Shown here: positions 30,653 to 61,321 of the stretch, piece by piece
How positions within the stretch are numbered: position 1 is the first letter of the stretch
Layout: each line of letters begins with the position of its first letter
From: Elusimicrobiota bacterium
Lineage (GTDB): Bacteria; Elusimicrobiota; Elusimicrobia; JACQPE01
Direction of reading: 5' to 3'
Length of the DNA: 64,000 nt
NCBI GenBank assembly: GCA_016207685.1
Contig: JACQPE010000004.1
Span: 1,559-65,558, forward strand
Translations under genes and position numbers: made by a program
Notes under the pieces: model-generated
Told to the model about the DNA's origin: nothing
What the model saw: only the letters and a program-made list of their open reading frames with translations
Database searches by the model: none

Positions 30653-30692
30653 CTTCTCTGCCAGCCTCATGAAGAGCTAAAATGAGTCCATT

Positions 30693-31337: not shown

Positions 31338-31338
31338 C

Positions 31339-31366
31339 GGGGTCACATCTCTACATTTTACATTTT
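31339..31366. repeat. 28-nt intergenic element, copy 2 (ggggtcacatctctacattttacatttt)
   Basis: inverted copy of 16551..16578 (26/28 identical); it fills the gap between convergent LysE and HExxH genes. Confidence 0.85.
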
Positions 31367-31367
31367 G

Positions 31368-32135: not shown

Positions 32136-32213
32136 ATAACATAGTCATATCCCTTAAAAGAGCATTTCCGCAAGGGAGCTTACCTATAAATTTTGGTGGG
32201 GGATAAAAATTTT

Positions 32214-33869: not shown

Positions 33870-33899
33870 TAACCGAGGTACCGTCTTGAGAATACTTGA

Positions 33900-34352
33900 T
33901 CACTCTTTGATAGTGATCACAAGCAGCGTCTTTAAACCGGCAATCTTCGATGCATCCGATGCCCACAGAAAACCCAGGGCATTGTGATCGGTTTGCAACG
34001 CCGCAACAAGCGCCTCGACGCCGGTTAGCGAAGAAGGCGGCGTGCCGCCATCTTGAAACACTTTTTTAATCCAATAACTCTGATAACCGTCTTCAGAAAC
34101 ACTTAAGACGGCTTTAAAAAACAATCCGCGCAAGCCTTTGGGCTCCTTAGTTTCCAGGGGCCGCAGCCGGTTCCCCTGGAGCATCACCTTCTCCCCCAAA
34201 AAAATATCCCGCGCTTCTTCTCTGGTCAGCGTTGAGGCGGGAAAACCGGGCCCGGCGACGATGGCAATTTCCTTGGACCAGAGAGAACCGCTCGCCATCA
34301 GCATGATACAAAGGACCGGTAAAAACCGCCCCATTAGAAGGAAAAGGCCCAC
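33900..34352 (-). CDS. small periplasmic PstS-like (PBP-fold fragment) protein
   Basis: signal peptide; segment TLTREEARDIFLGEKV resembles the conserved region of phosphate-binding proteins; only ~150 aa, so half a PBP fold at most. Confidence 0.35.
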   Translation of the reverse strand: MGLFLLMGRFLPVLCIMLMASGSLWSKEIAIVAGPGFPASTLTREEARDIFLGEKVMLQGNRLRPLETKEPKGLRGLFFKAVLSVSEDGYQSYWIKKVFQDGGTPPSSLTGVEALVAALQTDHNALGFLWASDASKIAGLKTLLVITIKE

Positions 34353-35461: not shown

Positions 35462-35504
35462 TAGTCAACATCATAAAAAAAATAGAGGTCAGTCAACCGT
35501 TTCT

Positions 35505-37055: not shown

Positions 37056-38800
37056 GTCGGCCCCTGATGCACAACATTGACATTTTGCGCTGACAATGCG
37101 GGCTTAAGTCCCATATTCACAATCGCTTCCTGCATTATTTTCTTAAACAATGGGGCCGCCAAGTCGCTGGCCCAGGCCACTTTAGGCTTGCGCGGATCAT
37201 CCAATATCACACAGGCGGCCAATTCCGGTTCCGGCATGGGCAAGGCGCCACAAAATGAAACGACAACATGATTTGGCGTATGGAGTCTGGTTTTCGGATC
37301 AATTTTCTGTGCCGTCCCTGTTTTTCCGGCCGTTGGATATCCGGCCATTTGAGCGGACTTGCCAGTTCCCTGTGCCACCACGCCTTCCATCAAAACCATG
37401 GCGCGCTTGGCCGCATTTTGAGGTAATGCTTGACGGACTTTCCGCGAAGAAAACGCGTAAAGCCGGCGCTCCTCGCGAAAACCCTTAATGCGATCAACAA
37501 TCTGGGGTTCAAGCAAAATGCCGCCGTTGGCCAAAGCCGCGTACGCTTGCGTTAATTGAAGCGGCGTCGTTCCGATTTCATATCCAAATGACATCATGGG
37601 CAAACTGACAGCGCTCCATCCCGCGGGCGGCCGGACAATGCCGACCGATTCTCCCGTGACGGGGAGCGCGGTTCTTGAGCCGAAACCAAACGCCCGATAG
37701 GCCTGATAAAGACCTTCCTGGCCGAGAGCCATGCCGATCTTGGCAAAACCGATATTTGAAGAATGCGCTATCACGGCGCTCAAGGGAATCAACCCATAAG
37801 GCTCATGGTCGGAAATCGTCAGGCTCGGCGTTGGATGCCAGCGCCCATTCTCGCAATCAATTTCATCTGTCTCTTGGACAACGCCGGCGTCCAATGCCGC
37901 CGCCAACACAAAAGGCTTGACAACGCTGCCCGGCTCAAAGGTATAACTCACGGCCAAATTAGGGTCCAGACTAAATCCCAATCCATCCTCAAAACCAGCT
38001 TCGGTGCGGCTCGCCATGGCCAAAAGCGCTCCCGTCCTGACATGAACGACTACGGCCACGGCGGCGCGGGCGTCCTGATGGGCCAGCGCTTCTTCCAAAT
38101 GAGCTTCCGTGCTTGATTGCAACTGAGCATCCAGCGTTAAATAAACATCAAAGGGTCCTTCGTCATGGCCGCGACTCCAGGGCCAGATCGCCATGCTCTC
38201 CGGCCGATCCTCTTCAGCAAACACCTTTCCTAAGGCATCCCGCAAAACAACACGCACCTCCTCTTTCCCTTGCAGCAGGGGATTAAGCTGCCTCTCAAGG
38301 CCGGATGTCCCCTCGCCGTCAATGCCCACGGAACCGATCAACTCCGCTGCCGTTTTCCCCCAGGGATAACGGCGCTTGGATTCAAGCTCAATTCCGATTC
38401 CCTTAATTCCCAGGCGCCTTAACGCCTCGGCCTCATCGGCAACGACCTGACGTTTGATCCAAACAAAATTCGACGATCCCCGAAGGCGGCGCATGAGGTC
38501 GCGTTGGTCAACACCTGAAATAACACGCGCGATTTGAAGCGCCAGGCGCTCGGGTGGAATATCGGTCTCTCGACGCGACACAAACAAAGACGGCATCTCG
38601 ACCGATACCCCAAGAACCCGGCCTCGCCGGTCAAGGATCCGCCCTCGCATGGGGCGGACACGCCTTGTTTGAACAACCTCGGAAGCTGTCATCTTGGCGT
38701 AAGAACCGTGCCTCACAATCTGAAGCTGGCCTAACCGGACAGCCACGGCGCCATAGAGAAAAAAAATCGCAGCCAAAGGCAGAAAGAGCCGGAAAGTCAT
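37052..38800 (-). CDS. ftsI: peptidoglycan D,D-transpeptidase FtsI (PBP3)
   Basis: SxxK (SVVKPF), KTG (AGKTGTAQK) and a dimerisation domain; start set at MTFRLFLPLAAIF (38800), because the ORF-track N-terminus MALFHFELGTWNLELGT is the translated heptamer repeat. Confidence 0.85.
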   Translation of the reverse strand: MTFRLFLPLAAIFFLYGAVAVRLGQLQIVRHGSYAKMTASEVVQTRRVRPMRGRILDRRGRVLGVSVEMPSLFVSRRETDIPPERLALQIARVISGVDQRDLMRRLRGSSNFVWIKRQVVADEAEALRRLGIKGIGIELESKRRYPWGKTAAELIGSVGIDGEGTSGLERQLNPLLQGKEEVRVVLRDALGKVFAEEDRPESMAIWPWSRGHDEGPFDVYLTLDAQLQSSTEAHLEEALAHQDARAAVAVVVHVRTGALLAMASRTEAGFEDGLGFSLDPNLAVSYTFEPGSVVKPFVLAAALDAGVVQETDEIDCENGRWHPTPSLTISDHEPYGLIPLSAVIAHSSNIGFAKIGMALGQEGLYQAYRAFGFGSRTALPVTGESVGIVRPPAGWSAVSLPMMSFGYEIGTTPLQLTQAYAALANGGILLEPQIVDRIKGFREERRLYAFSSRKVRQALPQNAAKRAMVLMEGVVAQGTGKSAQMAGYPTAGKTGTAQKIDPKTRLHTPNHVVVSFCGALPMPEPELAACVILDDPRKPKVAWASDLAAPLFKKIMQEAIVNMGLKPALSAQNVNVVHQGPT

Positions 38801-38813
38801 GGCGGACAATAGA

Positions 38814-38848
38814 GTTCCAAGTTCCAAGTTCCAAGTTCCAAGTTCAAA
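38814..38848. repeat. heptamer array (GTTCMAA)x5
   Basis: gttccaa x4 then gttcaaa, 14 nt upstream of the ftsI start. Confidence 0.9.
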
Positions 38849-38896
38849 ATGGAAAAGGGCCAAAAAAAGCAGGGCTTCTTTTCCCTCTTGACTTTT

Positions 38897-38924
38897 AACT
38901 TGGAACTTGGATATTGGAACTTTC
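38897..38924. repeat. heptamer array (AACTTGG)x4, inverse complement of 38814..38848
   Basis: aacttgg aacttgg atattgg aactttc. Confidence 0.85.
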
Positions 38925-38930
38925 TGCTGA

Positions 38931-39203
38931 TCATGGCATCACCCGGAGCTTTTCAGCAACCGGATAATCTGTGGGCAACCGATAACCTTGTTCGCGCGCC
39001 TTGATGGCCGTGATCTTATAAAACTGAATTTGTGCCAACTTAAATTCCATTTGAGCCAATTCTAAATCAAGGCCTTGAAGTTTTTCCCTCAAGCTTGCCA
39101 CCCGGTAGCCGCTTTGAACAACAAGAGTGCGCATCCAGACAACGGTCAAAAATGATAGGGCAACCCCCGGAATAATAATTAAGACTTTGACGCCGGATTT
39201 CAC
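38931..39203 (-). CDS. ftsL: cell division protein FtsL
   Basis: 90 aa, single N-terminal TM helix (VLIIIPGVALSFLTVVW) then coiled coil; position between rsmH and ftsI. Confidence 0.5.
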   Translation of the reverse strand: MKSGVKVLIIIPGVALSFLTVVWMRTLVVQSGYRVASLREKLQGLDLELAQMEFKLAQIQFYKITAIKAREQGYRLPTDYPVAEKLRVMP

Positions 39204-39250
39204 TCGCGCCGCCTTGAAAAACCAAAAGAATGCCGAATGCCGGAATCTAA

Positions 39251-39360
39251 AACGTCGAATTTCGAACGTCGAATTAAGGAACAGGGAAAATTTTGAATTT
39301 TAAATTTTGAATTTTGAATTAAGGAATTCATTTTATTTGTCATTTGAGATTCGTCATTCG
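39251..39360. repeat. compound short-tandem-repeat region: (CGTCGAA/TTTCGAA)x3, (AATTTTR)x4, (GTCATTY)x2
   Basis: aacgtcgaatttcgaacgtcgaatt ... ttttgaattttaaattttgaattttgaatt ... gtcatttgagattcgtcattcg; related to 51470..51506. Confidence 0.85.
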
Positions 39361-40253
39361 CCATTTCTAGGTTCATCAATTTTTTCAATGGCTCGCAATC
39401 TGGCTGATCGCGCTTTAGGATTCTGTTCCAGCTCCCTCTCGCAGGCCTGAACCGTGGAACGCGACAAAAAACGCGCCTGTCCGGATTCGACCCAAGAGTG
39501 AAAAACATCCTTGACAATCCGGTCCTCTAAAGAATGAAAACTAATAACAACCACCCGTCCCCCTGGTTTTAAGACCGCCGGAACAAAACCGAGCATTTGC
39601 CGGATGGCTCCCAGTTCATCATTGACCACGATGCGCAAGGCTTGAAAAACTTGAGCCCATATTTTGCGATTTCCGCTCGCACGCCGCAAAAATTTCACGA
39701 GCGCGCCCGATGTTTTGATCGAACCCCCGGCATTACAGAGCGTATGCGCGATACGACGGGACCACGATCTTGAAATTTCACCATTGGCCATCAGCAATTG
39801 TTCCAGGTCGCCCTCTGAAAGGGCCGCCAACAATTCGGCCGCGGTAATGCCTTTGTTTTGGCTGTCTAAACGCATGTCAAGAGGCTCGTCATTTTGGTAA
39901 GAAAGCCCAAGGCCTGAGTCCAAAACCTGAAAAGTCGAAGGTCCGAGGTCGCATAAGATGCCATCAACCGAAGGCCACGCCGCTCGAGTCAACACATGGT
40001 CCAAATTTCTAAAATTTGCCCGGACAAACCGGGTTCGATCGTGAAAAAATTTAAGGCGCTCCTGCGCTAAAGCCAAACTGCGCTCATTCCAATCAACACA
40101 AAGGCACCTTGCTTGAGGAAGCAGGGACAAAAGAGACCAGGAATGCCCTCCCGCTCCTGTCGTCAAATCCACATAATAGCCCTGGGGGTTTCCAGCCCAA
40201 TAATCTACCGCCTCTTGAAGAAGAACGGGCACATGAAGGGTCAGCGGCTTCAT
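39354..40253 (-). CDS. rsmH: 16S rRNA (cytosine1402-N4)-methyltransferase
   Basis: MKPLTLHVPVLLQEAVDYW...VDLTTGAGGHS, typical MraW/RsmH N-terminus; heads the dcw cluster. Confidence 0.9.
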   Translation of the reverse strand: MKPLTLHVPVLLQEAVDYWAGNPQGYYVDLTTGAGGHSWSLLSLLPQARCLCVDWNERSLALAQERLKFFHDRTRFVRANFRNLDHVLTRAAWPSVDGILCDLGPSTFQVLDSGLGLSYQNDEPLDMRLDSQNKGITAAELLAALSEGDLEQLLMANGEISRSWSRRIAHTLCNAGGSIKTSGALVKFLRRASGNRKIWAQVFQALRIVVNDELGAIRQMLGFVPAVLKPGGRVVVISFHSLEDRIVKDVFHSWVESGQARFLSRSTVQACERELEQNPKARSARLRAIEKIDEPRNGE

Positions 40254-40265: not shown

Positions 40266-40670
40266 GCATTACCGGCGGCATCTGCCGGAGGGCCGCCCTT
40301 CATCTATTACAGATCGAGGGAGGAAATTCCGAACTCCGCAGAGCCAGGGTGCCGTCTAAAAGGCGGGGCGCCCGTTGGAGACAACCGGCGCACGGACAGT
40401 GCCACAGAAACGAAACCACCCCATGATCCGTCACGATTAAGGGGAACGGGTGAAACCGTGAGGTAAAAGCTCACGCAGAATCATAGAAATATGAATCCGG
40501 AGGAAAACCCCACCTGGAGCAAGGCTGGATTTAGGAAAACTCCGCCAGGTCAGGCTCAAGACCGGGGTTCCTAAGTCCCTGCAAAGCAGAACGCCGCTTA
40601 GATAAATGGTCCTCGCTTGATTTTTACATCAAGCACAGAATTCGGGGTACAGGCAAGCCGCCGGTAATGC
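40266..40670 (+). ncRNA. rnpB: RNase P RNA (bacterial type)
   Basis: P4-region block GAGGAAAUUCCGAACUCCGCAGAGCCAGGGUGCCG (cf. GAGGAAAGUCCGGGCUCC...GGGCAGGGUGCCAGG); also CACGGACAGUGCCACAGAAACGAAACCACC, GGUGAAACCGUGAGGUAAAAGCUCAC and CCACCUGGAGCAAGGCUGGAUUUAGG; 14-bp terminal helix gcattaccggcggc/gccgccggtaatgc. Confidence 0.8.
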
Positions 40671-49876: not shown

Positions 49877-50449
49877 GAATCCACTGACAGTTTAGCGAAT
49901 TATTGGATAGAGAACCGCTTCCAATGCCGTGGCGGCTCCCACTGCCTTCAGGACTCTTGCCTAACGATCCGGCTGACCTATTGAGCCGGCTCCGTCTTTG
50001 GATGCGTCGTAAGCATCGCCGTAAATGGTCGCAGTCTCATCGAGCGTGGCCCGCCTCGCTTTTCTATAAGCGGGGGCTCTGTCGCCCTGGCGCCGCTTTA
50101 TATTGTCGGGCTAGCAGGCGAGGCGGCCTTGGGTAAAATCGGCGTTTTAACGATGAATTTGCAATACCACATGGCAAAAATGGAAACCGTTACTTTTACT
50201 GATTGTTGCGGCGATGATTCCGGCGCCTTGAAGTCCGCGGATGGAACGAAGAACATCTCCATTGATTACGGCGGAATATTCATCAGCATGGGACTCGGTT
50301 TTTAGCGAAGCCTCAAAAATAGAACTGGGGTCAATGCCTGACACATATTTTTTGTAAATAATAAAATTTCCATTATGTCTCACCCGCTTCGCATAGAATA
50401 GTAAAGGTGTAGCCCAGGGGAGCCCCCCGCCAACAATCCCTACATTCCG

Positions 50450-50480
50450 AAAAATGCCCCTGGCCGGGGCGCATTTTTGC
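50450..50480. terminator. bidirectional rho-independent terminator-like hairpin downstream of meaB
   Basis: aaaaat-gcccc-tggcc-ggggc-gcattttt: GC stem flanked by an A-run and a T-run. Confidence 0.5.
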
Positions 50481-50497
50481 CGGTGATAACACGATTT

Positions 50498-51448
50498 TTA
50501 CCGCCGTTTTCTTTTGAGAACTTTCTCGACGTACTCAATGGGGTCGGCTTTGCGCTCGAGAAGGTTGCCCAAGTCCACATCGGAAACCTTGGAGTCAATG
50601 GCCTGCCATAGCCTTTCCATCATCATGAGGCGGACTTCCGTGCGGATAGACTCCTTTTTGCGGCGTTCCCATTCGCCCGAGTCTTTCATGTGGCGCTCAT
50701 GGTCGTCAATGGTGGATAAAAGCCCTTCGGCGCCGTCTCCGGAGACCGAGTTGACCGCCATGACCGGGGTTTTCCACGCCCCTGATTTGCGCACGTCCAT
50801 GCTAAAAATATTCTTCCAAAACGTAATCGCCCGGTCCGTGCCTTCGGTATCTGATTTGTTGACCGCCACCATATCGGACATCTCGATAATGCCCGCTTTC
50901 ATGGCCTGCACCTCGTCTCCCAGGGTGGGCACCGTCACATAAACCGTGGTCTGGGCGACCTTGGCGATCAAGGTGTCATCCTGGCCGCTGCCCATGGTTT
51001 CAATAAAAATAAAATGCTTGCCGCTGGCCTCCATCACATGCACGAGAGAATAAATTTTTCGCGTCAATGAATCCAGGCTTTGCGCGCCGCCCGGCACCGA
51101 CCGGATAAAAACGCCTTCATCGTTGGCAATCTCCTGCATCCGGATGCGGTCCCCCAAAAAAGAGCCATGGCTGATGGGACTCGTGGGGTCAATCGAGAGC
51201 ACGCCCACGGTTTGCCCGCGTTTGCGCACCGCTTTAGCTAATTGGAAAATGAGCGAACTCTTGCCCACGCCCGTGGATCCGGTAATGCCGATAATCCGGG
51301 CATTACCGCCATACGGGTAAATTTTCTGCAGAAACTTAACGCTCGCCCCGTCGCCGTTTCGCTCCACCAAGGAAAGCCCTCTGGCAATGGCGCTCATCTC
51401 GCCGGAAATTACTCCGAGAACAAGTTCTTTTAATTCAAATGGCAGCAT
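50498..51448 (-). CDS. meaB: methylmalonyl-CoA mutase-associated GTPase MeaB/ArgK
   Basis: P-loop GITGSTGVGKSSLI and G-protein motifs. Confidence 0.85.
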   Translation of the reverse strand: MLPFELKELVLGVISGEMSAIARGLSLVERNGDGASVKFLQKIYPYGGNARIIGITGSTGVGKSSLIFQLAKAVRKRGQTVGVLSIDPTSPISHGSFLGDRIRMQEIANDEGVFIRSVPGGAQSLDSLTRKIYSLVHVMEASGKHFIFIETMGSGQDDTLIAKVAQTTVYVTVPTLGDEVQAMKAGIIEMSDMVAVNKSDTEGTDRAITFWKNIFSMDVRKSGAWKTPVMAVNSVSGDGAEGLLSTIDDHERHMKDSGEWERRKKESIRTEVRLMMMERLWQAIDSKVSDVDLGNLLERKADPIEYVEKVLKRKRR

Positions 51449-51520: not shown

Positions 51521-51952
51521 CTAATTTCTGCGCGTCTTTTTGGCAAGCCGTTCTTTTAAAAAACGGACGATTTCATTGGTCGGCGTTCCCGGACCAAAAA
51601 CGCGCTCCACGCCCTTTTTCTTGAGTTTGAGCACATCTTCACGCGGAATAATCCCTCCGCCAAAAACAAGAATATCTTTAAGCCCTTTTTCGTGGAGCAA
51701 ATCCATCACTTGGGGAAAAAGCGTCATATGGCTTCCGGACAGTAACGACAGCCCCACGCAGTCCACATCCTCCTGAAGGGCCGCCGTGGCGATCATTTCG
51801 GGGGTCTGCCGGATACCCGTGTAAATCACATCAAATCCCGCATCGCGCAACGCGCGAACCACGACTTTAGCGCCGCGATCATGACCGTCTAAGCCCGGTT
51901 TGGCAATTAAAATCCTACTCATAAACCATTTCCTCCTCTTGGAGCATTTCAA
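51521..51952 (-). CDS. methylmalonyl-CoA mutase, B12-binding (small/C-terminal) subunit
   Basis: cobalamin-binding DxHxxG: [15 protein letters not shown]. Confidence 0.8.
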
Positions 51953-53003
51953 GGTAGGCTTTGACCACCTGGGGGTCCAACCTTATCGAACTTAAGCTTT
52001 GGAGCTCGGTTGTGAGCTGTCCCAGGAGTTGTTCCCGGGGGACCCCGCGTAATTGATAGCGAATATCTTCGGCGGTGTCAACTACCGCGATAATGCGCGC
52101 GCCCAAGGGAATGGCTTCTCCCTTGAGATGGTCCGGGGTCCCGGAGCCATCCATGCACTCATGATGATGGCGGATAATAGGAATGGCCCCTTTGAAAAGT
52201 TCGACGCCGGAGAGCATTTTTTCCGCCAAGACCGAATGTAATCCATCCAACGAACCTTCCGAAGACTTATATTCCATGCGGGAAATACTTAAAAAATCCA
52301 TATAACGAGTATTTTTTTCCGCCAAAAATCCAATGTCATAAAGCAAGCTCGCATGCGCCAGATCCGCCAGTTCCTTGGCGGAAAGCCCCAGCCTTCGGCC
52401 TAAATACGCGGCTTGGCGCTGACACCGCCAAGGACGGCCCACGAATCGAGGACCGATAGATTCGATGGAAATAGCCAGCACTTCAAGAATGTGGGCAAAA
52501 AAATTACGCTGCTCATGAACCAGGCGGGCATTGGAAATGGCAATCGAAGCAAAACTGGCCAAATGGGTCAAAAGCATCTGATCTTCCTGGGTGAACTGCC
52601 CATTAATTTTATTGAGCATTTCCACAATCCCCAAGGGTTCTCCTTTGAAAAACATGGGCACGCACAAAAGAGATTTAGTCACGAAGCCGCTGGTTTTATC
52701 AAACTGCCCGGCAAACCTGGCGTCCCGCGTGACATCTCCGATAACTAAAGGCTGCAGATTTTGAGCCACCCATCCGGCGACCCCCACTCCGACGGGAATG
52801 ATGAGCTTTTTAATCGCCATTCCCTTGTCACCCGTCGCTACCTTAAAATAAAGATTCTTTCGGGTATCATCAAACAGCATTATTGAACTCGCTTCGCAAT
52901 TCAATAATTTTTTACCCACAAGACCAATTTTGCCCAAAACCGTATCCAAGTCGGTTGAACTTGTGAGCTCTTCGGCTATTTCAAAAAGACCTGCGGCATC
53001 CAT
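51915..53003 (-). CDS. GAF domain protein with degenerate HD-GYP domain
   Basis: N-terminal GAF; C-terminal HD-GYP fold in which HD is YDIGF ([14 protein letters not shown]) and GYP is GTP ([15 protein letters not shown]). Confidence 0.7.
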
Positions 53004-53005
53004 AA

Positions 53006-54994
53006 TTATTTTTTCTTCTCCTCTTCATGTTTTTCTTCGGCGCCGCCGATGACTTCGCGCACCGTGGTCAGGCCCTGCAGGCATTTCATGAGACCGTCTT
53101 GAATGATGGTTCTCATGCCGGAGGCTACGGCGGCATCCTTCAAGGGCCCGGCCGCCACCTCCTTAAGCGCCAGCGTGCGAATCCGATCATCCATCACCAG
53201 TAACTCATGAATACCGCAGCGCCCTTTAAATCCGGAGCCTTTGCATGTCGCGCAATCCTCTCCTTTGCCGCGATAAAGCTTGGCTCCGGCCGGCAACTCC
53301 ACCGCATGGGCCTTATAAATCTCCTTTTCCTCGGCTGTTGGCTCCACGGTGATCTTGCAATCAGGGCAGACCCGCCTGGAGAGCCTCTGGGCCAAAATCG
53401 CTTTCACCGTGCTCGCCACCATAAAGGCCGGTATCTTCATCTCCGTCAAGCGGGCGATCGAGCTTGGCGCATCGTTGGTATGAATCGTGGAAAAAACCAA
53501 ATGACCCGTCATGGCCGCTTCCATGGCGATATGGGCTGTTTCTTTATCGCGAATTTCACCGACCATGATCACATCGGGGTCCAACCGTAAAAATGACCGC
53601 AAGGCCGCGGAAAAATCGAAAAATTTATCCCCGCTTAATTTTAAGTCCGGATTAACAGGAACTTGAACAATGCCGTCGAGATTATACTCCACGGGATTTT
53701 CCGCGGTTAAAATTTTAATGTCGGGCCTGTTAATAAAATTTAACGATCCATAAAGCGTCGTTGATTTGCCCGATCCCGTAGGTCCGCAAACCAAAACCAG
53801 GCCAAAATTCTTCTTGCCGCCGACGCCTTTTAAAAGTCCCAAATATTTCTCCAGCGTGTCGGGCAAAAAGCCCATGGTATTGATATCCACCTGCACGCTG
53901 CGCCGATCCAGGACTCGCATGACGCAAGACTCGCCATAAGCCGTAGGCACAACTTCCACGCGAAACTCAAGCGGATTGCCCTTGGCGATGACTTGGATGC
54001 GCCCCGATTGGGGAATTCGCCGCTCGGTGATATTCATGGATTTGGTCATAATTTTGATTTTAGCGATCAAAGCGTTGCGAAAAAGCCAAGGAATCTTAAT
54101 GTAACGCGCATCTTTCAGCATCCCGTCAACGCGTAAACGGATACCCACTTTGCTTCTCTTGCCACGAGGGTCCTCAAAAGGCTCGATATGAATATCAGAG
54201 GCCTTCTCGCGGATGGCCGCCAAAATAATAATGTTCATAAGCTTCTCGACTTCCGGAGCGGACGTATCGACTTCTGTAATGTCTGATTTTTGTTCGCTGC
54301 TTTGAATCTCCAGGCCTTCGGACATCGTGCCCAGGTCCTGGCTGCGCACATCCTCCAAGGCCTTTTCCAAAGCTTCACTGGCGGCTTCCGCCTGGCTGGG
54401 GCCTCCTTCTTCCTCAACTTCCTCCTCCTGCTCCTCATCCAGTTCTTCGGCGGCCATTTCAATCGCGGAAGGGCCGGATTTGACGTGCGCTTCGGACGAA
54501 GGGCTTGAAGGGCCGTCTTTCGGATCTCCTCCCAATGCCTTGCGGCCGGCGGCCAAAATATCATCGGGGAATGCGAAATAACTTCTGACTTGAAATCCTG
54601 TGCGCAATTGAATGTCATCCGCCACAAATAAATCGCGCGGATCGGGCATGGCCACCAAAAGCATCCCCTCCTCTTTCATGAACGGCAGCAACGTATGCCG
54701 GCGCTGCAAGGCCTCCGGGACCAGGTGAATCACATCCGGATCAATGGCCAATTGAGATAAATCAACGGCCTTCACATTCCATCCCTTCATGATTATTTCC
54801 AGCAGCTTGGCTCGATCCGCCAACTTTTTACGCAAAATAAACATCAAAAATTGCGCCACATTGCCCTTGGCCTTGACCCAAAGCAGGTCTAATTGCTTGG
54901 CGTCAATCAAATGGGATTCAACAAGAAGTTCTTTAAGTGTTTTTTTACGAACAAGCGCTTCCATGGGATTTATTAATAGGGAACCAACGGGCAA
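53006..54994 (-). CDS. PilB/GspE-family secretion ATPase with MshEN-like N-terminal domain
   Basis: N-terminus TLKELLVESHLIDAKQLDLLW; acidic linker; Walker A LVCGPTGSGKSTTLY; C-terminal tetra-Cys CPDCK...CATCKGSGFKGRCG. Confidence 0.8.
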   Translation of the reverse strand: MPVGSLLINPMEALVRKKTLKELLVESHLIDAKQLDLLWVKAKGNVAQFLMFILRKKLADRAKLLEIIMKGWNVKAVDLSQLAIDPDVIHLVPEALQRRHTLLPFMKEEGMLLVAMPDPRDLFVADDIQLRTGFQVRSYFAFPDDILAAGRKALGGDPKDGPSSPSSEAHVKSGPSAIEMAAEELDEEQEEEVEEEGGPSQAEAASEALEKALEDVRSQDLGTMSEGLEIQSSEQKSDITEVDTSAPEVEKLMNIIILAAIREKASDIHIEPFEDPRGKRSKVGIRLRVDGMLKDARYIKIPWLFRNALIAKIKIMTKSMNITERRIPQSGRIQVIAKGNPLEFRVEVVPTAYGESCVMRVLDRRSVQVDINTMGFLPDTLEKYLGLLKGVGGKKNFGLVLVCGPTGSGKSTTLYGSLNFINRPDIKILTAENPVEYNLDGIVQVPVNPDLKLSGDKFFDFSAALRSFLRLDPDVIMVGEIRDKETAHIAMEAAMTGHLVFSTIHTNDAPSSIARLTEMKIPAFMVASTVKAILAQRLSRRVCPDCKITVEPTAEEKEIYKAHAVELPAGAKLYRGKGEDCATCKGSGFKGRCGIHELLVMDDRIRTLALKEVAAGPLKDAAVASGMRTIIQDGLMKCLQGLTTVREVIGGAEEKHEEEKKK

Positions 54995-55009: not shown

Positions 55010-56647
55010 TTAATGCTGCGATTGCTGCCAACCGGCGACTCGGGCCAAGGCTTGCGCGATTTCTCCAAGGGTTGCTCCGGCGTCAACGGCTCCAATCGCG
55101 ACGGGCACCACATTTTCTTGGGTCGCCATAACCTGGGCAAGACGCTCAAGGGCCCTCTCGACGCGTTTTTTCTCGCGCTGCCTACGGTGTCGCGCCAACG
55201 CCCGCACGCTTTGGTTCTCCGATAAGGGCCGGACCTTAAAAGCCTTGACGCCGCTGGAATCATGATCTCCACCAAAAGTATTTACACCAACGATGGGAAT
55301 TTTTCCAGACTCAATTGCCATTTGATAATGATAGCTTGACTGGGCGATTGCCTGGCCGGCAAAACCATCCTTAATGGCCTCAAGCATGCCCCCGTGCCGG
55401 CTGATTTCTTCAAGACGGTCTTTGACCGAAACCACGATGTCTTGAGTTAAAGCTTCAATGGCATAGGAACCGCCAACCGGGTCCGCCGTGTCGGCAATGC
55501 CAGTTTCAAGCGCCAAAATTTGCTGGGTTCTCAAGGCCAAAAGCTGGGCTTGCTCCGTGGGAATAGCCAAAGCTTCATCAAAGGAATTGGTGTGGAGGCT
55601 TTGGGCGCCGCCCAAAACAGCGGCCATTGCTTGCAACGACACGCGAACGGCATTATTGAAGGGATCCTGCCGCGCCAAGGTTGATCCGCAGGTCTGGGCA
55701 TGAAAACGCAAATGAAGCATTTTAGGGTCTTCAATGCCGTAGCGCAAGCGCACTAAATGCGCCCAAATTTTTCGCGCGGCCCGGAACTTGGCGATTTCCT
55801 CTAGAAAATGGTTGTGCACGCCAAAGAAAAAACTTAACCGCTGTAACAAAGTCTTAATGGAGCCAACCCTGGCCTTAAATTGATCCAAATAGACCAGCGC
55901 ATTACCGAAGGTGAAAGCCAACTCATCAACGGCCGTAGCCCCAGCCTCCCGGATATGATACCCGGAAACGGACACAGGATAAAAAAGAGGAGTCTCCTTC
56001 ACGGAATACTCCATCAAATCGCAGGCCAAACGCAAGCTGGGGGCCGGCGGAAAAGCATAGGTTCCGCGCGCCAAATACTCCTTTAAAATGTCATTTTGCA
56101 CGGTGCCGCGCAAAATTTTAGGGTCTAATCCGCGGCGCCTGGCCAGGACCACCAAACAAGAATAAAGAACAAGGGCCGTGGCATTGATGGTCATGGAAAT
56201 CGAAACCTTGCTTAAATCAATGCCCTTAAAAAGCCGCTCGAAATCCCAAATGCCGCCGACGCTCACCCCGACCTTTCCAACCTCCCCCTTGCTGTTGGGA
56301 TGATCCGGATCAAGCCCCATTTGCGTGGGTAAATCAAAGGCCAGCGACAACCCCGTTTCACCATGACCGATTAAATAATGAAACCGCTTGTTCGTTTCCG
56401 CAGCTGTTCCATAGCCGCAATACATGCGCATCGTCCAGAGCTTGGCTTGATATCCTTGAGGGTAAAGCCCGCGCGCAAAAGGAAACTTGCCGGGCTCGCC
56501 TTCCTGCCGCAAGGTCACGTCGTTGATATCCTGGTGCGTGTACACTCTCTTGATATCAAAACCGCTTGGCGTCTGAAATTCCATCGCCGGCGGCGTTCGA
56601 TTGTTGGATGTGCTATCGGAATTCTTAACTTCAGCCGTCAAAGTCAA
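55010..56647 (-). CDS. methylmalonyl-CoA mutase, catalytic (large/N-terminal) subunit
   Basis: FPFARGLYPQGYQAKLWTMRMYCGYGTAAETNKRFHYLIGHGETGLSLAFDLPTQMG. Confidence 0.85.
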   Translation of the reverse strand: MTLTAEVKNSDSTSNNRTPPAMEFQTPSGFDIKRVYTHQDINDVTLRQEGEPGKFPFARGLYPQGYQAKLWTMRMYCGYGTAAETNKRFHYLIGHGETGLSLAFDLPTQMGLDPDHPNSKGEVGKVGVSVGGIWDFERLFKGIDLSKVSISMTINATALVLYSCLVVLARRRGLDPKILRGTVQNDILKEYLARGTYAFPPAPSLRLACDLMEYSVKETPLFYPVSVSGYHIREAGATAVDELAFTFGNALVYLDQFKARVGSIKTLLQRLSFFFGVHNHFLEEIAKFRAARKIWAHLVRLRYGIEDPKMLHLRFHAQTCGSTLARQDPFNNAVRVSLQAMAAVLGGAQSLHTNSFDEALAIPTEQAQLLALRTQQILALETGIADTADPVGGSYAIEALTQDIVVSVKDRLEEISRHGGMLEAIKDGFAGQAIAQSSYHYQMAIESGKIPIVGVNTFGGDHDSSGVKAFKVRPLSENQSVRALARHRRQREKKRVERALERLAQVMATQENVVPVAIGAVDAGATLGEIAQALARVAGWQQSQH

Positions 56648-56975
56648 TCTGGTCTCCTATGCCGGTACCCGAAGCCGCAATCGTTCCTCTCGGCAATTCA
56701 ATCACCCGATCCGCTTTCCAATAGATACGCGACAGTCTCCAGGGCGCCAGCGTTTCGGCCCCCACAACCTCATTATGCCGGTTAATAAACAAGCAATCAA
56801 TTGGGTACCGCATAAAAAACGTATGCACCTGCGGACACACGGAATATAGGACCATGGCCTCGCCATTGTCCAGCGGACGCTGGCCCAAAAGGCCTTGAAT
56901 ACGCTCCCAAAAACCTCGGGCCAGCCGCAGGCGTCCGGCGATTTCGATGCGGCGCGTGCGGTTTTTTATTACCAA
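56631..56975 (-). CDS. DUF192 family protein
   Basis: ~114 aa with VHTFFMRYPIDCLFIN-type core. Confidence 0.55.
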   Translation of the reverse strand: MVIKNRTRRIEIAGRLRLARGFWERIQGLLGQRPLDNGEAMVLYSVCPQVHTFFMRYPIDCLFINRHNEVVGAETLAPWRLSRIYWKADRVIELPRGTIAASGTGIGDQIDFDG

Positions 56976-58000
56976 ACGAAATCAACGCCCAAAAAGCCCA
57001 GGAGGCCGGAAAAACTCCATGAACCCAAATCCTTGTTGGTCACCCGTGTCGTTTGGCGCTCCGCGTCAACCGATCCGGCAACCGAAGTCGCCGCCTGGTA
57101 ACCCAGCTCCAAACGGATCATGTGATTTCGTGAAGCGGCCCACTCGATACCATACTGAACGCGGCCGGCGAAAACAGTTTGGCTGCGGCTCGCCGAAAGC
57201 AGAACCTGATCGCTGGTGCTCACGGATCCCTCAATAGGGCTTTCGCTGCCATAGTCAATATCCGTATCCACGGAAAACGTATAGGTGCGGTCAACCTTGG
57301 TATTAATAAGCCCAAGGCCGATGAGCCAATGCGGTTTAAGCGCCAGAGACGATTTAGAATCCATCTGAACAAAAAAGATCAATGGAACCTGGCGCATGGA
57401 TTCGTCAATTTCCAGACGCGCGTAAGAATACATGGAATCATCGCCGCCGCCGTCGATGCTTAATGTATCCAATCCAATATCGTTGCTGACGATTCGGTTG
57501 TTGAGCGAGCCATACCCCAAAGAAACACCCACGGCCATGCCGTGGTCAACGTAATAACGATAAACAATTTCCGGTAAAAATCCGGACGGCGACCATTCGG
57601 TCCTGCTAAAACTATAGATGAACGTATCGGACACGCCTGCCGTCTGTGTCGTGACGACGGTATGCAATATATCAACCACATTGTTAGAATGCCAATTGGG
57701 ATTGCCGCCGCCCAGCAAGCTGGGCTGCGAAAAAAAACCAAGCTCAATGCCGAAGGAACTGGCTTCATCTAAATTCCATTCAGAATGCTGCGGGCCCCTG
57801 CTGCGCGAGGAGCGACGCTCATACTCTTCATAACGGCGCGGATCATACCCGTATTCTCGGATCGATGGAACCTCATCCGGAACAGACGGCAAGCTCGAAG
57901 ATGCGGCCCGAAGTTCAACATTCATTGCGCCCAACAATATCCCCAAAACCAAGACACGGGGCCCCTGTTGACGCAGAATCGTCTGCCTGAATCTTTTCAC
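56969..58000 (-). CDS. hypothetical outer-membrane beta-barrel protein (GTG start)
   Basis: start moved to GTG at 58000 (VKRFRQTILRQQGPRVLVLGILLGAMNVELRA is a signal peptide), 1 nt after the ALDH stop; the ORF-track start would overlap ALDH by 265 nt; C-terminus ...FLGVDFVW. Confidence 0.4.
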   Translation of the reverse strand: MKRFRQTILRQQGPRVLVLGILLGAMNVELRAASSSLPSVPDEVPSIREYGYDPRRYEEYERRSSRSRGPQHSEWNLDEASSFGIELGFFSQPSLLGGGNPNWHSNNVVDILHTVVTTQTAGVSDTFIYSFSRTEWSPSGFLPEIVYRYYVDHGMAVGVSLGYGSLNNRIVSNDIGLDTLSIDGGGDDSMYSYARLEIDESMRQVPLIFFVQMDSKSSLALKPHWLIGLGLINTKVDRTYTFSVDTDIDYGSESPIEGSVSTSDQVLLSASRSQTVFAGRVQYGIEWAASRNHMIRLELGYQAATSVAGSVDAERQTTRVTNKDLGSWSFSGLLGFLGVDFVW

Positions 58001-58001
58001 G

Positions 58002-59555
58002 TTATTGATCAATCTGGGCTTTTTGAAGCCGCCCGGAATAATCCACATATACCGCTTTCCATTCGGTAAAAATATCAAGAACCGCTTGGCCTGCTTCGCG
58101 ATGGCCGTTGCCCGTGTGCTTGACACCGCCAAAAGGCAAATGCACTTCCGCGCCGATCGTGGGCGCGTTGATATAGGTAATTCCTGTTTGCATGTCCCGC
58201 ACCGCCTGCATGACGCGATTGACATCCCTTGTGTAGACCGAACCCGAAAGGCCATAGCGAGTGCCATTCATCACCTGGAGCCCCTGTTCAAAAGTCTTAA
58301 CCTTAATGACCATCAACACAGGCCCAAAAATTTCTTCTTGAGCCAAGCGCATGTCCGGGGCGCCTTCAAAAATAGTCGGCTCAAAATAAAATCCTTGCCC
58401 CAAGACGCCTTCCGTAGCCCGGCGGCCTCCCAAAAGCAGCCTTGCTTTGTCCTCGCGTAATCCGATGTCCACATAGCGCTTCACCGTTTCGAGCTGGTCC
58501 TCGCTCACCAAAGGCCCCACTTGGGAATCTGCATCAAGGCCATTGCCCAATTTTAATTTTGAGGCCGCTTGGACCAATTTCTCGATCAACGCTCCATAAA
58601 TCCCCTCCTGAATAATGAGGCGGCTGGTGGCTGTGCAGCGCTGCCCCGTCGTGCCAAAAGCGCCCCATAGAGCGCCCTCAATCGCCAAGTCTACGTCCGC
58701 ATCATCAAGCACCAGTTGAGCGTTTTTGCCGCCCATCTCCAAAGAAACTTTTTTAAACAATTGACCGCAAGCCGCTGCGATCGAGGACCCCACCTCGGAG
58801 GATCCCGTAAAAGAAATCAGCCGGACCACCGGTGACTCAATCAACGCTTGTCCCAAGACGGAGCCGCTGCCATGAACCAAATTAACGACGCCCGCCGGAA
58901 TACCCGCCTCTTCCAAAATTTCCACCAAAAGCGTGGCGGTCGCCGGGGTGCAGGATGCCGGCTTAAAAACAACCGTGTTACCGCACAAAAGCGCCGGAAA
59001 TATTTTCCATGAAGGAATCGCCATGGGAAAATTCCATGGCGTGATCAAGCCGCAAACGCCGATGGAACTCCTCACGGTCATGGCAAATTTATCGGCCAAC
59101 TCGGAAGTTGTCGTGACGCCAAATAGACGCCGGCCTTCGCCCGCGAAATAAAGCGCCGTGTCAATAGCTTCCTGCACATCGCCCCGGGTTTCTTTTAACA
59201 CCTTGCCCATCTCTTGAGTCATCACTTGGGCCAAGGCTTCTTTGCGTTCGAGCAAAACCTGGTAGGCCCGCAAAATCCGTTCAGCCCTCTTTGGCGCCGG
59301 CACCAATCTCCACGAGGCGTACGCCTCCGAGGCTGCAACGACGGCCTCATTCAAATCCTCCGCCGCTGATGATGGCCACCGGCCCAAAAGCTCTCCGGTT
59401 GCCGGATTAATATTGTCAAATGTCTTGCCGGAACGCGACGCCTTCCATTGGCCATTGATATAGTTATAAGCGCCGGGCAGCCGGACCGCCCTGGAAACGC
59501 CATCCATGATATCGGCTATTTTTTTATTAGTCCTATGCAATGTCGTGCTTGCCAT
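58002..59555 (-). CDS. NAD(P)-dependent aldehyde dehydrogenase
   Basis: [11 protein letters not shown] and catalytic [14 protein letters not shown]. Confidence 0.85.
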
Positions 59556-60022: not shown

Positions 60023-60094
60023 TGTCCCCAAGTGGAATTGAACCACTATCTTTGCCTTCGCAGGGCAACACTCTATCCGTTGAGCTATGGGGAC
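60023..60094 (-). tRNA. tRNA-Arg, anticodon GCG
   Basis: cloverleaf folded by hand from GTCCCCATAGCTCAACGGATAGAGTGTTGCCCTGCGAAGGCAAAGATAGTGGTTCAATTCCACTTGGGGACA; acceptor 7 bp, Arg-type D-arm, anticodon loop CTGCGAA. Confidence 0.75.
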
Positions 60095-60765: not shown

Positions 60766-60854
60766 GGAGAGATGCGTGAGCGGTTGAAACGGCACGCCTG
60801 GAAAGCGTGTATAGCCGAAAGGCTATCGAGGGTTCGAATCCCTCTCTCTCCGCA
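60766..60854 (+). tRNA. tRNA-Ser, anticodon GGA
   Basis: class II tRNA: acceptor GGAGAGA/TCTCTCC, D-loop GAGCGGTTGAA identical to E. coli tRNA-Ser, anticodon loop CTGGAAA, long variable arm TAGCC-GAAA-GGCTA, T-loop TTCGAAT; T-run follows. Confidence 0.85.
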
Positions 60855-61321
60855 CTTTTTTAGAGAAAAAGTACGGTTCGGACGGCCCCTGCTCGGAGGG
60901 CAGGGACCCTTGAAGCGCCTGAGGCGCGTTGAGCCGGAGGCGCTGGGACGAATATAAAATATGTCCCATTCTCTCCGCAGAAGTTGACAGATTTCAAAAC
61001 TCTACCGCAAGAAAGCCGCGTTCATGTTGGGCAACGGGCGGAGCAATAGCTCAACCGTCTTTCTAGGCCATTCATGGTTGAGATTATCCTCCGTTGTGGG
61101 TATCCCAGCGCCTCGGCGCACACAACAATCCCTGTTTTTGGGGCTCAATAGGTTCATTTGCATTATGGCCTGTCGTTTTGCTGTCTACGCTTCACGACCA
61201 GCGTCGCCGAGGACCTTGCAAGACGCGCTACGACCCTGCGGGCTAGGCTTTGGGTTGATGGAACTTGCATCCATTGGATTTCTACGGCTTTCCTGGCGCA
61301 GGGGGGTTAGGGGTTAAAAAA

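Follow-up and report, generated by a model that had tools for sequence, protein, structure and literature searches.

The window, by which we mean the whole 64-kb stretch of DNA analysed, comes from an Elusimicrobia MAG and carries a compact cluster on its minus strand, in the order DUF192, methylmalonyl-CoA mutase (MCM) large subunit, PilB/GspE-type ATPase, GAF/HD-GYP protein, B12-binding subunit and MeaB (Table 1). A previous sequence-only reading had placed two genes between the mutase catalytic subunit and the B12 subunit plus MeaB, and this was confirmed by the ORF positions on the minus strand. It had also described the genes as running head-to-tail with overlaps of 3–38 nt; they do lie tightly packed on one strand, but the overlaps were wrong, the spacings being −17 nt (DUF192/MCM), +15 nt (MCM/ATPase from the TTG start; +45 from the ATG), +2 nt (ATPase/HD-GYP), −38 nt (HD-GYP/B12 from the TTG; −8 from an ATG with GGAGGA just upstream) and +72 nt (B12/MeaB). 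The true start of the B12 subunit is likely to be this ATG, at 51922, which gives an 8-nt overlap with the HD-GYP stop codon. The DUF192 gene heading the cluster had been overlooked.

We infer that the genes of the cluster are co-transcribed and, judging by its sequence, the hairpin 3′ of MeaB probably terminates the transcription unit. The counts of promoter and terminator matches within the cluster, and of hairpin-type sites in the region, were not above chance. The mutase genes are intact; the large subunit, the B12 subunit and MeaB all scored above curated NCBIfam cutoffs, and the DxHxxG motif of the B12 subunit reads LDGHDRG in the translation. As in other split mutase operons with MeaB, there is a large subunit, a small B12 subunit and a G-protein chaperone, to which relatives add an epimerase and a carboxyltransferase. 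Unlike in those operons, the ATPase/HD-GYP pair separates the large- and small-subunit genes, a separation kept in 21 of the 22 judgeable relatives.

Table 1. Features of the mutase cluster and of the two proteins encoded within it
Feature	Position	Strand	Evidence
DUF192 (COG1430), first cluster gene	56631..56975	-	Pfam PF02643 5e-17
Methylmalonyl-CoA mutase large (catalytic) subunit	55010..56647	-	PF01642 5e-189 over full profile; TIGR00641 624 bits vs cutoff 303.8
PilB/GspE-clade secretion ATPase	53006..54994	-	T2SSE 7e-110
MshEN-homologous N-terminal domain, aa 15-153	54536..54952	-	PF05157 62 bits over aa 73-153
Acidic low-complexity linker, ~aa 155-245	54260..54532	-	read from translation; expanded in the window's subclade
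ATPase core	53048..54253	-	motif residues invariant in family alignment
Walker A	53759-53785	-	motif coordinates
Asp box TAENPVEY	53684-53707	-	motif coordinates
Walker B and catalytic Glu	53546-53581	-	motif coordinates
His box	53474-53509	-	motif coordinates
Tetracysteine motif	53243-53368	-	motif coordinates
PmGH-type GAF/HD-GYP protein, degenerate catalytic centre, 362 aa	51915..53003	-	4mcw 1.3e-27 over aa 8-312
GAF domain, aa 17-158	52530..52955	-	PF01590 3.8e-16; carries NK...F...D motif
HD-GYP domain, aa 180-345	51969..52466	-	PF13487 5.6e-22; YD replaces HD, GTP replaces GYP
Mutase B12-binding small subunit	51521..51952	-	TIGR00640 181 bits vs cutoff 57
MeaB, mutase G-protein chaperone	50498..51448	-	PF03308 5e-69; TIGR00750 253 bits vs cutoff 240.75
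Terminator-like GC hairpin and T-run	50456..50470	-	~28 nt past MeaB stop; consensus match only

A PilB-like ATPase with a degenerate MshEN-type N-terminus

The first inserted gene had been described as encoding a 662-aa secretion-type ATPase, and it does encode 662 aa from its TTG codon, with Pfam matches to T2SSE (7e-110) and MshEN (5e-17). Translation is likely to begin at the ATG at 54964, for a length of 652 aa, and this start is used in the NCBI call MBI4368659.1 (P0001/MBI4368659.1 is 100% identical to the window ATPase). PilB structures were its best matches (E 1e-113 to 1e-109), M. xanthus PilB (3JC8, 1.6e-113) coming first, followed by Geobacter PilB (G. metallireducens 5TSG/5TSH), and the proteins share an MshEN-like N-terminal domain, an N2D and a C-terminal ATPase domain. 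Also common to both are Walker A, an atypical Walker B with the catalytic Glu, the His box, the Arg fingers and a tetracysteine Zn motif, all of them invariant or nearly so across the window ATPase family. The Asp box, too, still has the Glu that binds Mg (E357 in Gm PilB), and from its sequence the ATPase has every motif required for ATP hydrolysis.

However, the window ATPase differs from PilB in several respects. Its scores lie under both equivalog cutoffs (508 against 676 bits for PilB, and 461 against 630 for GspE), and its Asp box is ENPVE where PilB has EDPVE; ENPVE was found in all 120 family members, whereas 119 of 120 canonical PilB-like proteins have EDP[VI]E. The family also has insertions of its own, to which the window's subclade adds the long acidic linker, its proteins being 652–671 aa long compared with about 590–612 aa for most other members. 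Given the ENPVE box, the scores under the cutoffs and an N-terminus of MshEN type devoid of the c-di-GMP motif (see below), the ATPase is best read as a member of a distinct Elusimicrobia PilB paralogue family, apart from canonical Elusimicrobia PilB.

The N-terminus had been said to resemble the c-di-GMP-binding MshEN domain. The homology held, but the ligand-binding residues did not. The MshEN motif is RLGxx(L)(V/I)xxG(I/F)(L/V)xxxxLxxxLxxQ (Wang et al. 2016, PMC5013675). The window N-terminus aligns to PilB N-termini and to MshE of V. cholerae (5HTL, E 9e-08), with further matches to PF05157 and to the MshEN region of NfrB, and both 24-residue repeats preserve their hydrophobic heptad positions. 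In contrast with MshE, Arg, both Gly and Gln are substituted in both repeats (T/K/H/A in repeat I, Q/L/K/G in repeat II), so that only the hydrophobic motif positions are kept; this degenerate region (aa 19–71) lies outside the Pfam match (aa 73–153). The ATPase matched neither the strict nor the relaxed form of the published pattern, and the relaxed motif was present in 0 of 120 family members compared with 99 of 120 canonical PilBs. Likewise, the window protein gave no match to the curated NCBIfam model NF053729 at E≤0.01, and the family's top score, 29.5 bits, fell short of the cutoff of 38. An MshEN-type c-di-GMP sensor function of the ATPase is not supported by these two results.

A PmGH-type protein with a degenerate HD-GYP domain

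The second inserted gene encodes a protein in which Pfam profiles detected both expected domains, GAF (4e-16) and HD_5 (6e-22). It has the same two-domain architecture as PmGH, the c-di-GMP phosphodiesterase of Persephonella marina (4MCW), and the two can be aligned end to end (family profile E 5e-58, full length). The GAF domain is the best-conserved part of the protein and holds most of the invariant columns of the family alignment A1: N131 is invariant, K132 is Lys in 108 of 119 members and position 137 is always Phe or Tyr. It resembles cNMP-binding GAF domains (CyaB2 1ykd, 1.3e-23; PDE2/5). A GAF domain of such a type can gate HD-GYP activity via cAMP, as in the cAMP-activated GAF/HD-GYP protein Tlr0485.

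The HD-GYP domain contains YDIGF and GTP exactly as previously noted, and the prediction that it is non-catalytic was supported; it proved more degenerate than had been recognized. In PmGH numbering, H221Y is accompanied by H189R, D183G, K225F and E185R, while HHExxDGxGxP, H250, H276/H277 and the D305 position are kept. Each of the PmGH mutations H189A, H221A, D183A and K225A abolishes activity. Most relatives retain seven of the eight PmGH metal ligands, with Glu substituting for D305; His is found at position 189 in 101 and at position 221 in 114 of 119 members, and Lys never at position 225. The eighth ligand (E185), the D183/K225 catalytic pair and the substrate contacts R314/K317 have been lost family-wide, and the window lineage has additionally lost two essential His ligands, H189 and H221. 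Thus the window protein is very probably not a phosphodiesterase. Degeneracy of the HD-GYP domain has arisen several times independently (RYD; YHK, in 12 members; singletons), with the GAF domain staying invariant. A weak match to the family profile (E 4e-09) was Bd1817 of Bdellovibrio (3TM8), whose HD-GYP fold lacks the tyrosine of GYP and which is considered non-catalytic. In Bd1817 the His residues that bind metal are retained and the N-terminal domain is DUF3391, whereas the window protein lacks two of its His ligands and carries a GAF domain.

Conservation of the pair and its neighbours in relatives

Of 55 judgeable related loci, 42 have the HD-GYP gene directly after the ATPase gene and 13 lack it, although such counts overstate independence because the loci are metagenome-derived and some are close kin of one another. 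The annotated genes overlap by 1–4 nt in L001, L004, L007 and L009. Judged from these sequences, the pair is old and widespread within the phylum. In the most ordinary case, the ATPase would be the lineage's only, housekeeping PilB lying beside an unrelated signalling gene, in an order that reflects neutral ancestral synteny and has no regulatory meaning. This would fit its top matches (PilB structures and the PilB equivalog model), the chance-level promoter and terminator counts within the cluster and the failure to find a canonical PilB in the same genome among 10 × 10 NCBI accessions compared. We consider it unlikely, however, as the frequent linkage with start/stop overlaps argues for a dedicated partner, the invariant hallmarks of the family suggest specialization, and L050 has, in tandem with a family member, a canonical PilB paralogue whose c-di-GMP motif is intact.

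Pfam scans of 48 of the larger ORFs across the 64-kb window detected no pilus or T2SS genes, in agreement with the sequence-only reading; a pilus platform (pilC), pilin, secretin or PilT gene was not found in the window, which again sets the ATPase apart from PilB. Among relatives, L003 has a PilM gene between the ATPase and HD-GYP genes (TIGR01175, 194 bits; cutoff 133), and a few mutase-free loci have genes for N_methyl pilin-like proteins (4) or A24 prepilin peptidases (5) 3–6 genes downstream (both kinds together in L084), with an opposite-strand smpB separating these pilin/PilD neighbours from the ATPase. A REC-GGDEF gene is found directly upstream of the pair in L011, L017 and L043, and the upstream genes in L050 include those for the canonical PilB, a di-PilZ and a ComEA-like protein. 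The previously proposed c-di-GMP theme is therefore apparent at the family level (REC-GGDEF, PilZ and HD-GYP neighbours) but not in the ATPase, which lacks the MshEN motif. These neighbour genes in other lineages suggest a pilus role for the pair.

Alternatively, the ATPase might power a non-pilus secretion or uptake process, such as T2SS-like subtilase export or DNA uptake, with DUF192 as its true partner and the GAF/HD-GYP protein as an optional regulator. Of all upstream neighbours of the ATPase family, DUF192 is the most widely conserved, directly adjoining the ATPase in 21 related loci and lying just past MCM in 28 (49 together), and a Peptidase_S8 gene is located 2–5 ORFs upstream of the ATPase in 21 loci, usually just past DUF192. 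The loci without HD-GYP, the ComEA-like gene of L050, and an Asp box and N-terminus unlike those of canonical PilB point the same way. Yet GspF/GspD/GspL-type genes were not seen in the scanned neighbour clusters or the L050 flanks, the S8 peptidase is absent at the corresponding window position, and the only machine component found inside the pair is PilM, which is T4aP-specific. A sequence search found no solved relative of the window DUF192 protein, and no obvious signal peptide was evident in it on direct reading. We regard this possibility as decidedly unlikely.

Of 85 related loci, 32 have MCM immediately before the ATPase; HD-GYP follows in all 24 of these that could be judged, and HD-GYP plus B12 in 21 of the 22 with enough sequence, the usual continuation being epimerase, carboxyltransferase, malate dehydrogenase and PanK. 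The place of the pair inside the mutase cluster is not unique to the window. Two clades, both with 98% bootstrap support, share the mutase-flanked order, and across them identity falls to about 54% for the ATPase and about 39% for MeaB; this conservation exceeds the neutral-synteny expectation and leaves room for a real functional tie. On the other hand, no mutase genes accompany the pair in L004, L059, L041, L054, L026, L037 and L040; the MCM context is absent from basal ATPase clades, and there and in other clades DUF192 and the pair are found together with no mutase genes. Even mutase-free relatives have a malate dehydrogenase, malic enzyme or carboxyltransferase gene downstream of the pair. 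Many relatives keep the pair in the mutase cluster. Others carry it away from mutase genes and beside pilus genes, and the idea that it is specific to, or a functional part of, the mutase operon is therefore not supported. A c-di-GMP-sensing pair (MshEN receptor ATPase and pseudo-phosphodiesterase) integrated with mutase assembly, cofactor loading or flux would suit this conserved order, the tight spacing with its B12/HD-GYP overlap and the GGDEF and PilZ neighbours, but is very unlikely, since the MshEN motif is missing by both pattern and curated model, the pair and DUF192 persist away from mutase genes, the recurring non-metabolic neighbours are pilus genes, MeaB, the dedicated mutase chaperone, is already present and intact, and we know of no mechanism linking a PilB-type hexamer to a CoA mutase. 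Nothing in the analysis shows the pair working with the mutase.

A putative pilus module within a metabolic cluster

Taken together, we favour, with modest confidence, a distinct PilB paralogue with a dedicated GAF/HD-GYP partner, pilus-related and at most co-expressed with the methylmalonyl-CoA pathway, outside mutase chemistry. The first gene encodes a hexameric PilB/GspE-clade ATPase of its own paralogue family, in a conserved two-gene Elusimicrobia module, and the second a PmGH-type GAF/HD-GYP protein whose translation is coupled to that of the first. The latter could sense a signal and regulate the ATPase as a subunit or adaptor. A small ligand, perhaps a cyclic mononucleotide, would bind to the GAF domain, and the HD-GYP domain would either bind a cyclic dinucleotide or be no more than a scaffold; physical interaction between the two proteins and the identity of these ligands are part of what we infer.

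The adaptor role is modelled on degenerate c-di-GMP proteins such as FimX, a catalytically dead c-di-GMP-domain protein that regulates a pilus extension ATPase in the FimX–PilZ–PilB complex of Xanthomonas citri (PMC8389850). The concept of a dead sensor or adaptor acting via the N-terminal region of the ATPase would be the same, although the degenerate domain in the window is HD-GYP rather than EAL/GGDEF, the partner gene lies directly downstream of the ATPase gene and there is no PilZ in the window. The ATPase may then power a pilus-like type IV filament machine whose genes would lie in another part of the genome. The order DUF192-MCM-ATPase-HDGYP-B12-MeaB-epimerase-carboxyltransferase-MDH-PanK is old and stably inherited, and the position of the pair between the mutase genes, in whose chemistry it would take no part, may at most tie the module's expression to the methylmalonyl-CoA (succinate/propionate) pathway.

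Gene cluster and surroundings in the window

The window DNA comes from an Elusimicrobia MAG, and its large subunit, B12-binding subunit and MeaB are a methylmalonyl-CoA mutase system, each scoring above the curated cutoff of its family model (see the table). Direct reading of the translation gave LDGHDRG for the DxHxxG motif of the B12 subunit. The ATPase encoded between the two subunits was 100% identical to the protein MBI4368659.1 (P0001), whose start is an ATG lying ten codons after the TTG. Although all five genes had been described as overlapping in the sequence-only reading, the successive spacings from DUF192 to MeaB measured −17, +15 (+45 from the ATG), +2, −38 and +72 nt, showing a tight packing on one strand in which some of the gaps are positive. 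The overlap between the GAF/HD-GYP and B12 genes is −38 nt, or −8 nt from the likelier ATG at 51922, upstream of which lies GGAGGA.

Features of the window, with the model scores or contents on which each assignment is based
Feature	Position	Strand	Support or content
DUF192	56631-56975	-	first gene of cluster; Pfam/NCBIfam support
Methylmalonyl-CoA mutase large subunit	55010-56647	-	TIGR00641 624 vs cutoff 303.8
PilB/GspE-type ATPase, 662 aa	53006-54994	-	T2SSE 7e-110, MshEN 5e-17
GAF/HD-GYP protein, 362 aa	51915-53003	-	GAF 4e-16, HD_5 6e-22
B12-binding small subunit	51521-51952	-	TIGR00640 181.2 vs cutoff 57.45
MeaB	50498-51448	-	TIGR00750 253.1 vs cutoff 240.75
Bidirectional terminator-like hairpin	50455-50471		
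Intergenic stretch, 621 nt	49877-50497		between MeaB and LolA-like/FtsX/ABC genes
432-aa ORF	56969-58267	-	upstream of DUF192
tRNA	60023-60094	-	
tRNA	60766-60852	+	
Group II intron, D1-D4-6	61092-61267	-	Rfam, 62 bits vs gathering score 49
RNase P RNA, bacterial class A	40275-40665	+	176 bits; adjoins mraW
Split dcw cluster, whole	21873-40253		
dcw, one half	35505-40253		MraW, PBP, MurE
dcw, other half	21873-27220		Mur ligase, MraY, MurD, FtsW
HAMP + class III adenylate/guanylate cyclase	32214-33869	-	weak C-terminal TPR match
DprA	12200-13363	-	
XerC/D-type tyrosine recombinase	8929-9867	-	

The bidirectional hairpin listed in the table, a GC hairpin with a T-run, lies approximately 28 nt past MeaB. 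A promoter and terminator scan of the region returned sites no more numerous than in shuffled sequence, and only the post-MeaB hairpin among the matches was positionally suggestive. Rfam detected neither a cobalamin riboswitch nor any other RNA inside or beside the cluster, and the intergenic stretch following MeaB held neither a convincing ORF nor a match in Rfam. Both GC content and skew were flat over the cluster; together with the ancient gene order described below, this led us to reject a recent insertion or mobile element as the origin of the arrangement.

Several other features of the window were recorded. The 432-aa ORF upstream of DUF192 was unmatched in Pfam and probably has a later true start because it overlaps an aldehyde dehydrogenase ORF by ~266 nt; in relatives that position holds either a Peptidase_S8 subtilase or a ~325-aa hypothetical protein. 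A second conserved cluster, that for the cell wall and division (dcw), is also interrupted: ~8 kb of unrelated genes separates its halves and encodes the cyclase, LysE, two unknown ORFs, an aldehyde dehydrogenase fusion of 794 aa and a DeoC aldolase. A reverse-transcriptase ORF was not evident downstream of the group II intron as far as the tRNA, and the intron may be truncated or ORF-less. The XerC/D-type recombinase and DprA genes are separated by topoisomerase I. DprA is DNA-processing protein A of natural transformation, and DNA uptake usually needs a type IV filament; its presence hints at DNA-uptake capacity.

The PilB/GspE-type ATPase and its N-terminal domain

The 662-aa protein is a member of the T2SSE/PilB-GspE secretion ATPase superfamily. 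PF00437 (T2SSE) matched at 367.5 bits vs a gathering score of 24.9, with Walker A at aa 404–412, the Asp box at 430–437, the atypical Walker B and the catalytic Glu at 472–483 and the His box at 496–507. These motifs, the Arg fingers and the tetracysteine motif showed little or no variation among 120 relatives, and the closest solved structures were PilB of M. xanthus (1.6e-113) and PilB of Geobacter. Nevertheless, the ATPase scored below the cutoffs of both equivalog models, with 508.4 bits vs 675.65 for PilB (TIGR02538) and 460.9 bits vs 630.25 for GspE (TIGR02533). A canonical paralogue standing in tandem with a family member at the related locus L050 reached 608 bits on TIGR02538, higher than the window ATPase, yet below the cutoff as well.

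The Asp box was the clearest family mark. It reads ENPVE in the window protein (TAENPVEY, 53684–53707) and in all 120 relatives, whereas EDP[VI]E was present in 119 of 120 canonical PilB-like proteins (hereafter canonical PilBs), none of which showed the Asp-to-Asn change; the window ATPase thus departs from the canonical E-D-P-[VI]-E pattern. The second Glu of the box, which is Mg-binding in Geobacter PilB (E357), is retained. Because of the Asp box, the N-terminus and the canonical PilB beside a family member at L050, we conclude that the window ATPase belongs to a paralogue family separate from canonical PilB. Proteins named type IV-A PilB by NCBI are common in Elusimicrobia, with PilZ and Tad-type genes among their contexts. 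A search for canonical PilB in the same genome, based on the proximity of NCBI accessions among 10 x 10 proteins only, gave no pairs, the nearest being ~56,000 accessions apart. Present annotations of family proteins are inconsistent, ranging over TadA, GspE and a generic 'T2SS/T4P/T4SS family' ATPase.

The sequence-only reading had likened the N-terminus to the c-di-GMP-binding MshEN motif. Homology to the MshEN/T2SSE_N domain holds at the level of the fold, as PF05157 matched aa 73–153 (62.2 bits vs 23.1) and the MshE structure 5htl aligned with aa 17–128 (E = 8.8e-08), but the binding signature was not there. The motif defined by Wang et al. consists of a tandem 24-residue RLGxx(L)(V/I)xxG(I/F)(L/V)xxxxLxxxLxxQ, together with a relaxed pattern. 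Its Arg, both Gly and Gln are replaced in the ATPase by T/K/H/A in repeat I and Q/L/K/G in repeat II. Neither the strict nor the relaxed pattern matched the window protein or any of its 120 relatives, in contrast with 99 of the 120 canonical PilBs and both positive controls (Mx PilB and Gm PilB). In a family-wide scan of N-terminal domains with NF053729 (cutoff 38 bits), the best family member scored 29.5 bits vs 66.1 for the canonical paralogue, and the window protein and its closest relative were unmatched at E ≤ 0.01. Because the patterns and NF053729 both fail, we limit the MshEN assignment to fold and homology; c-di-GMP binding by the N-terminus, though possible, is not supported by the motif.

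The GAF/HD-GYP protein

The second inserted gene encodes a GAF domain followed by a full-length HD-GYP domain, an architecture of the type seen in PmGH, the Persephonella marina GAF/HD-GYP phosphodiesterase (4mcw). The alignment to PmGH ran end to end over PmGH residues 11–357, at E = 1.3e-27 with the sequence alone and 5e-58 with the profile of its family. Of the PmGH ligands E185, H189, H221, D222, H250, H276, H277 and D305, which correspond to R, R, Y, D, H, H, H and D in the window protein, five of the eight are retained. In addition, D183 is replaced by G, K225 by F and GYP by GTP. Any one of the substitutions H189A, H221A, D183A and K225A inactivates PmGH, and Y285A does not; on this basis the window HD-GYP is, judging by its residues, very probably inactive as a phosphodiesterase. 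The earlier proposal of a degenerate, non-catalytic HD-GYP, drawn from the YD and GTP changes, is therefore strengthened by the additional losses at H189, D183 and K225. The decisive losses are those of His, Asp and Lys, and not that of the GYP tyrosine which had been stressed.

The same positions varied among the 119 GAF/HD-GYP relatives. H189 was kept in 101 and H221 in 114; Lys never occurred at the K225 position (Y in 82, F in 21), the GYP tyrosine position held F in 57 and Y in 46, and E185, K225 and the R314/K317 contacts were absent family-wide. The RYD state was confined to the window protein and its two closest relatives, and a separate YHK state was found in 12 other relatives, in addition to singletons. 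The most invariant columns of the family fall in the GAF domain, including the cNMP-GAF-type NK...F/Y...D. Because catalytic residues were lost repeatedly while the sensor domain stayed conserved, the pattern points to sensing and protein contact as the main role of the partner. A cAMP-gated GAF/HD-GYP protein, Tlr0485, is known. The stop and start of the HD-GYP gene and the ATPase gene overlap or abut, and the HD-GYP gene lay downstream of the ATPase in 42 of 55 judgeable loci, which shows genetic linkage; by functional analogy the protein may be a FimX-like degenerate c-di-GMP adaptor that would bind the ATPase and control it in response to a ligand.

A cyclase gene (see the table) was noted ~18 kb from the GAF/HD-GYP gene, and a Guanylate_cyc gene lies ~9 kb upstream of the ATPase in the related locus L007. 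The window cyclase might supply the GAF domain with a cNMP ligand, or its proximity may be coincidental.

Gene order in relatives and its meaning

The ATPase and partner families are both large, and wherever the organism was stated the source was Elusimicrobia. We examined annotated contexts and 80 metagenome loci collected by a family-specific N-terminal profile; a scan of genome contigs with the single ATPase sequence gave 2 loci. Gene contexts were labelled from tblastn coordinates. In 85 loci, the upstream neighbour of the ATPase was the large mutase subunit (MCM) in 32, an adjacent DUF192 in 21, another gene in 23 and not judgeable in 9, and DUF192 stood just past MCM in 28 of the 32. Where MCM was upstream and the sequence long enough, the HD-GYP and B12 genes followed in 21 of 22 loci. 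The exception, L003, lacks a B12 gene and has PilM placed within the ATPase/HD-GYP pair. The string DUF192-MCM-ATPase-HDGYP-B12-MeaB-epimerase-carboxyltransferase-malate dehydrogenase-PanK recurs in many contigs whose identity to the window is 54–59% for the ATPase and ~39% for MeaB.

The arrangement is thus kept in a large part of the phylum, but the pair is not confined to the mutase setting, as mutase-free variants exist. These include DUF192-ATPase-HDGYP-Ldh-PanK (L059), DUF192-ATPase-HDGYP-carboxyltransferase-Ldh (L041), ATPase-HDGYP-malic enzyme (L026, L037, L040 and L054) and CTP synthase-hyp-ATPase-(HDGYP)-Ldh-PanK (L004, L008, L053, L060 and L063). An NJ tree with bootstrap, rooted on a canonical paralogue, is distance-based and was built from loci that are not independent samples. 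In it the mutase context fell into two clades, each with 98% support, and only 41 of 200 replicates united the two as one monophyletic group. Because the basal clades hold the pair without the mutase, the pairing is older than the mutase association.

The absence of pilus and T2SS genes nearby was confirmed by a Pfam scan of 48 of the larger ORFs of the 64-kb window, which found none. Near the ATPase in some relatives, PilM, pilin-like, PilD, PilB and PilZ genes were found, the non-metabolic neighbours being pilus or c-di-GMP genes. The PilM within the pair at L003 scored 194 bits on TIGR01175 (cutoff 133). A few loci that lack the mutase have pilin-like N_methyl genes (4 loci) and prepilin peptidase/PilD genes (5 loci) 3–6 genes downstream of the ATPase, with both present in L084; an smpB on the opposite strand lies between them and the ATPase. 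A REC-GGDEF gene adjoins the ATPase upstream in L011, L017 and L043. At L050, ComEA-like and di-PilZ genes and a canonical PilB whose c-di-GMP motif is intact lie directly upstream of the family ATPase.

The full order at L050 (432–13437) is ComEA-like, di-PilZ, TPR, Ser/Thr kinase with PEGA repeats, canonical PilB, family ATPase, HD-GYP and a stand-alone receiver. PilZ and kinase-PEGA genes are also upstream of a canonical PilB at L090, with ABC-transporter, DUF5678 and Bro-N genes intervening. Just upstream at L003 (62–4325) are genes for fumarase and for two subunits of CoA-transferase, which add to the succinate/propionate-pathway genes, and a second GAF/HD-GYP paralogue, divergent at 33% identity, which makes the regulator a duplicated one.

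Taken together, the earlier observation was largely right, its HD-GYP claim having stood and its MshEN c-di-GMP signature not. The best-supported reading is that the pair would comprise a motor ATPase related to pili and belonging to a family of its own, and a dedicated GAF/HD-GYP regulatory partner that is catalytically dead here, a module inherited within an ancient gene string shared with the methylmalonyl-CoA pathway. The module is plausibly co-expressed with that pathway. That it acts mechanistically in mutase function is unlikely and not supported, though the depth of conservation leaves room for it. We also consider it improbable that DUF192, the ATPase and the GAF/HD-GYP protein form a motor gated by metabolic state. 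In that reading the GAF/HD-GYP subunit would respond to a signal tied to the pathway, for example a cyclic nucleotide or a metabolite linked to succinate/propionate fermentation. The place of the genes between the mutase subunits would then be under selection, since the motor, serving attachment by pili, uptake or secretion, would have to be made in stoichiometric amounts with the enzymes of the methylmalonyl-CoA pathway or be joined to them physically; if true, a PilB-type ATPase would be connected with B12-dependent central metabolism in a way not described before. Literature and PDB sequence searches on DUF192 gave nothing usable. The findings give no hint of novel enzyme chemistry or of a system of a new class. 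No description of the family, the pairing or the arrangement was found in the open-access papers searched, which covered Elusimicrobia pili and the methylmalonyl operon.

If the reading of a pilus-related motor with a dead regulatory partner holds, Elusimicrobia would have a second, previously undistinguished PilB-like motor family, marked by the ENPVE Asp box, the motif-less MshEN domain and its own GAF/HD-GYP partner, and an annotation rule for the inconsistently labelled ATPases follows from these marks. The repeated catalytic loss in the partner resembles a series of natural transitions from enzyme to adaptor. Known second-messenger control of type IV filament motors so far comprises MshEN, PilZ and FimX, and would, if the reading is true, be extended. 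Finally, the conserved ten-gene string offers a test case for distinguishing functional coupling from co-expression only in mixed operons.
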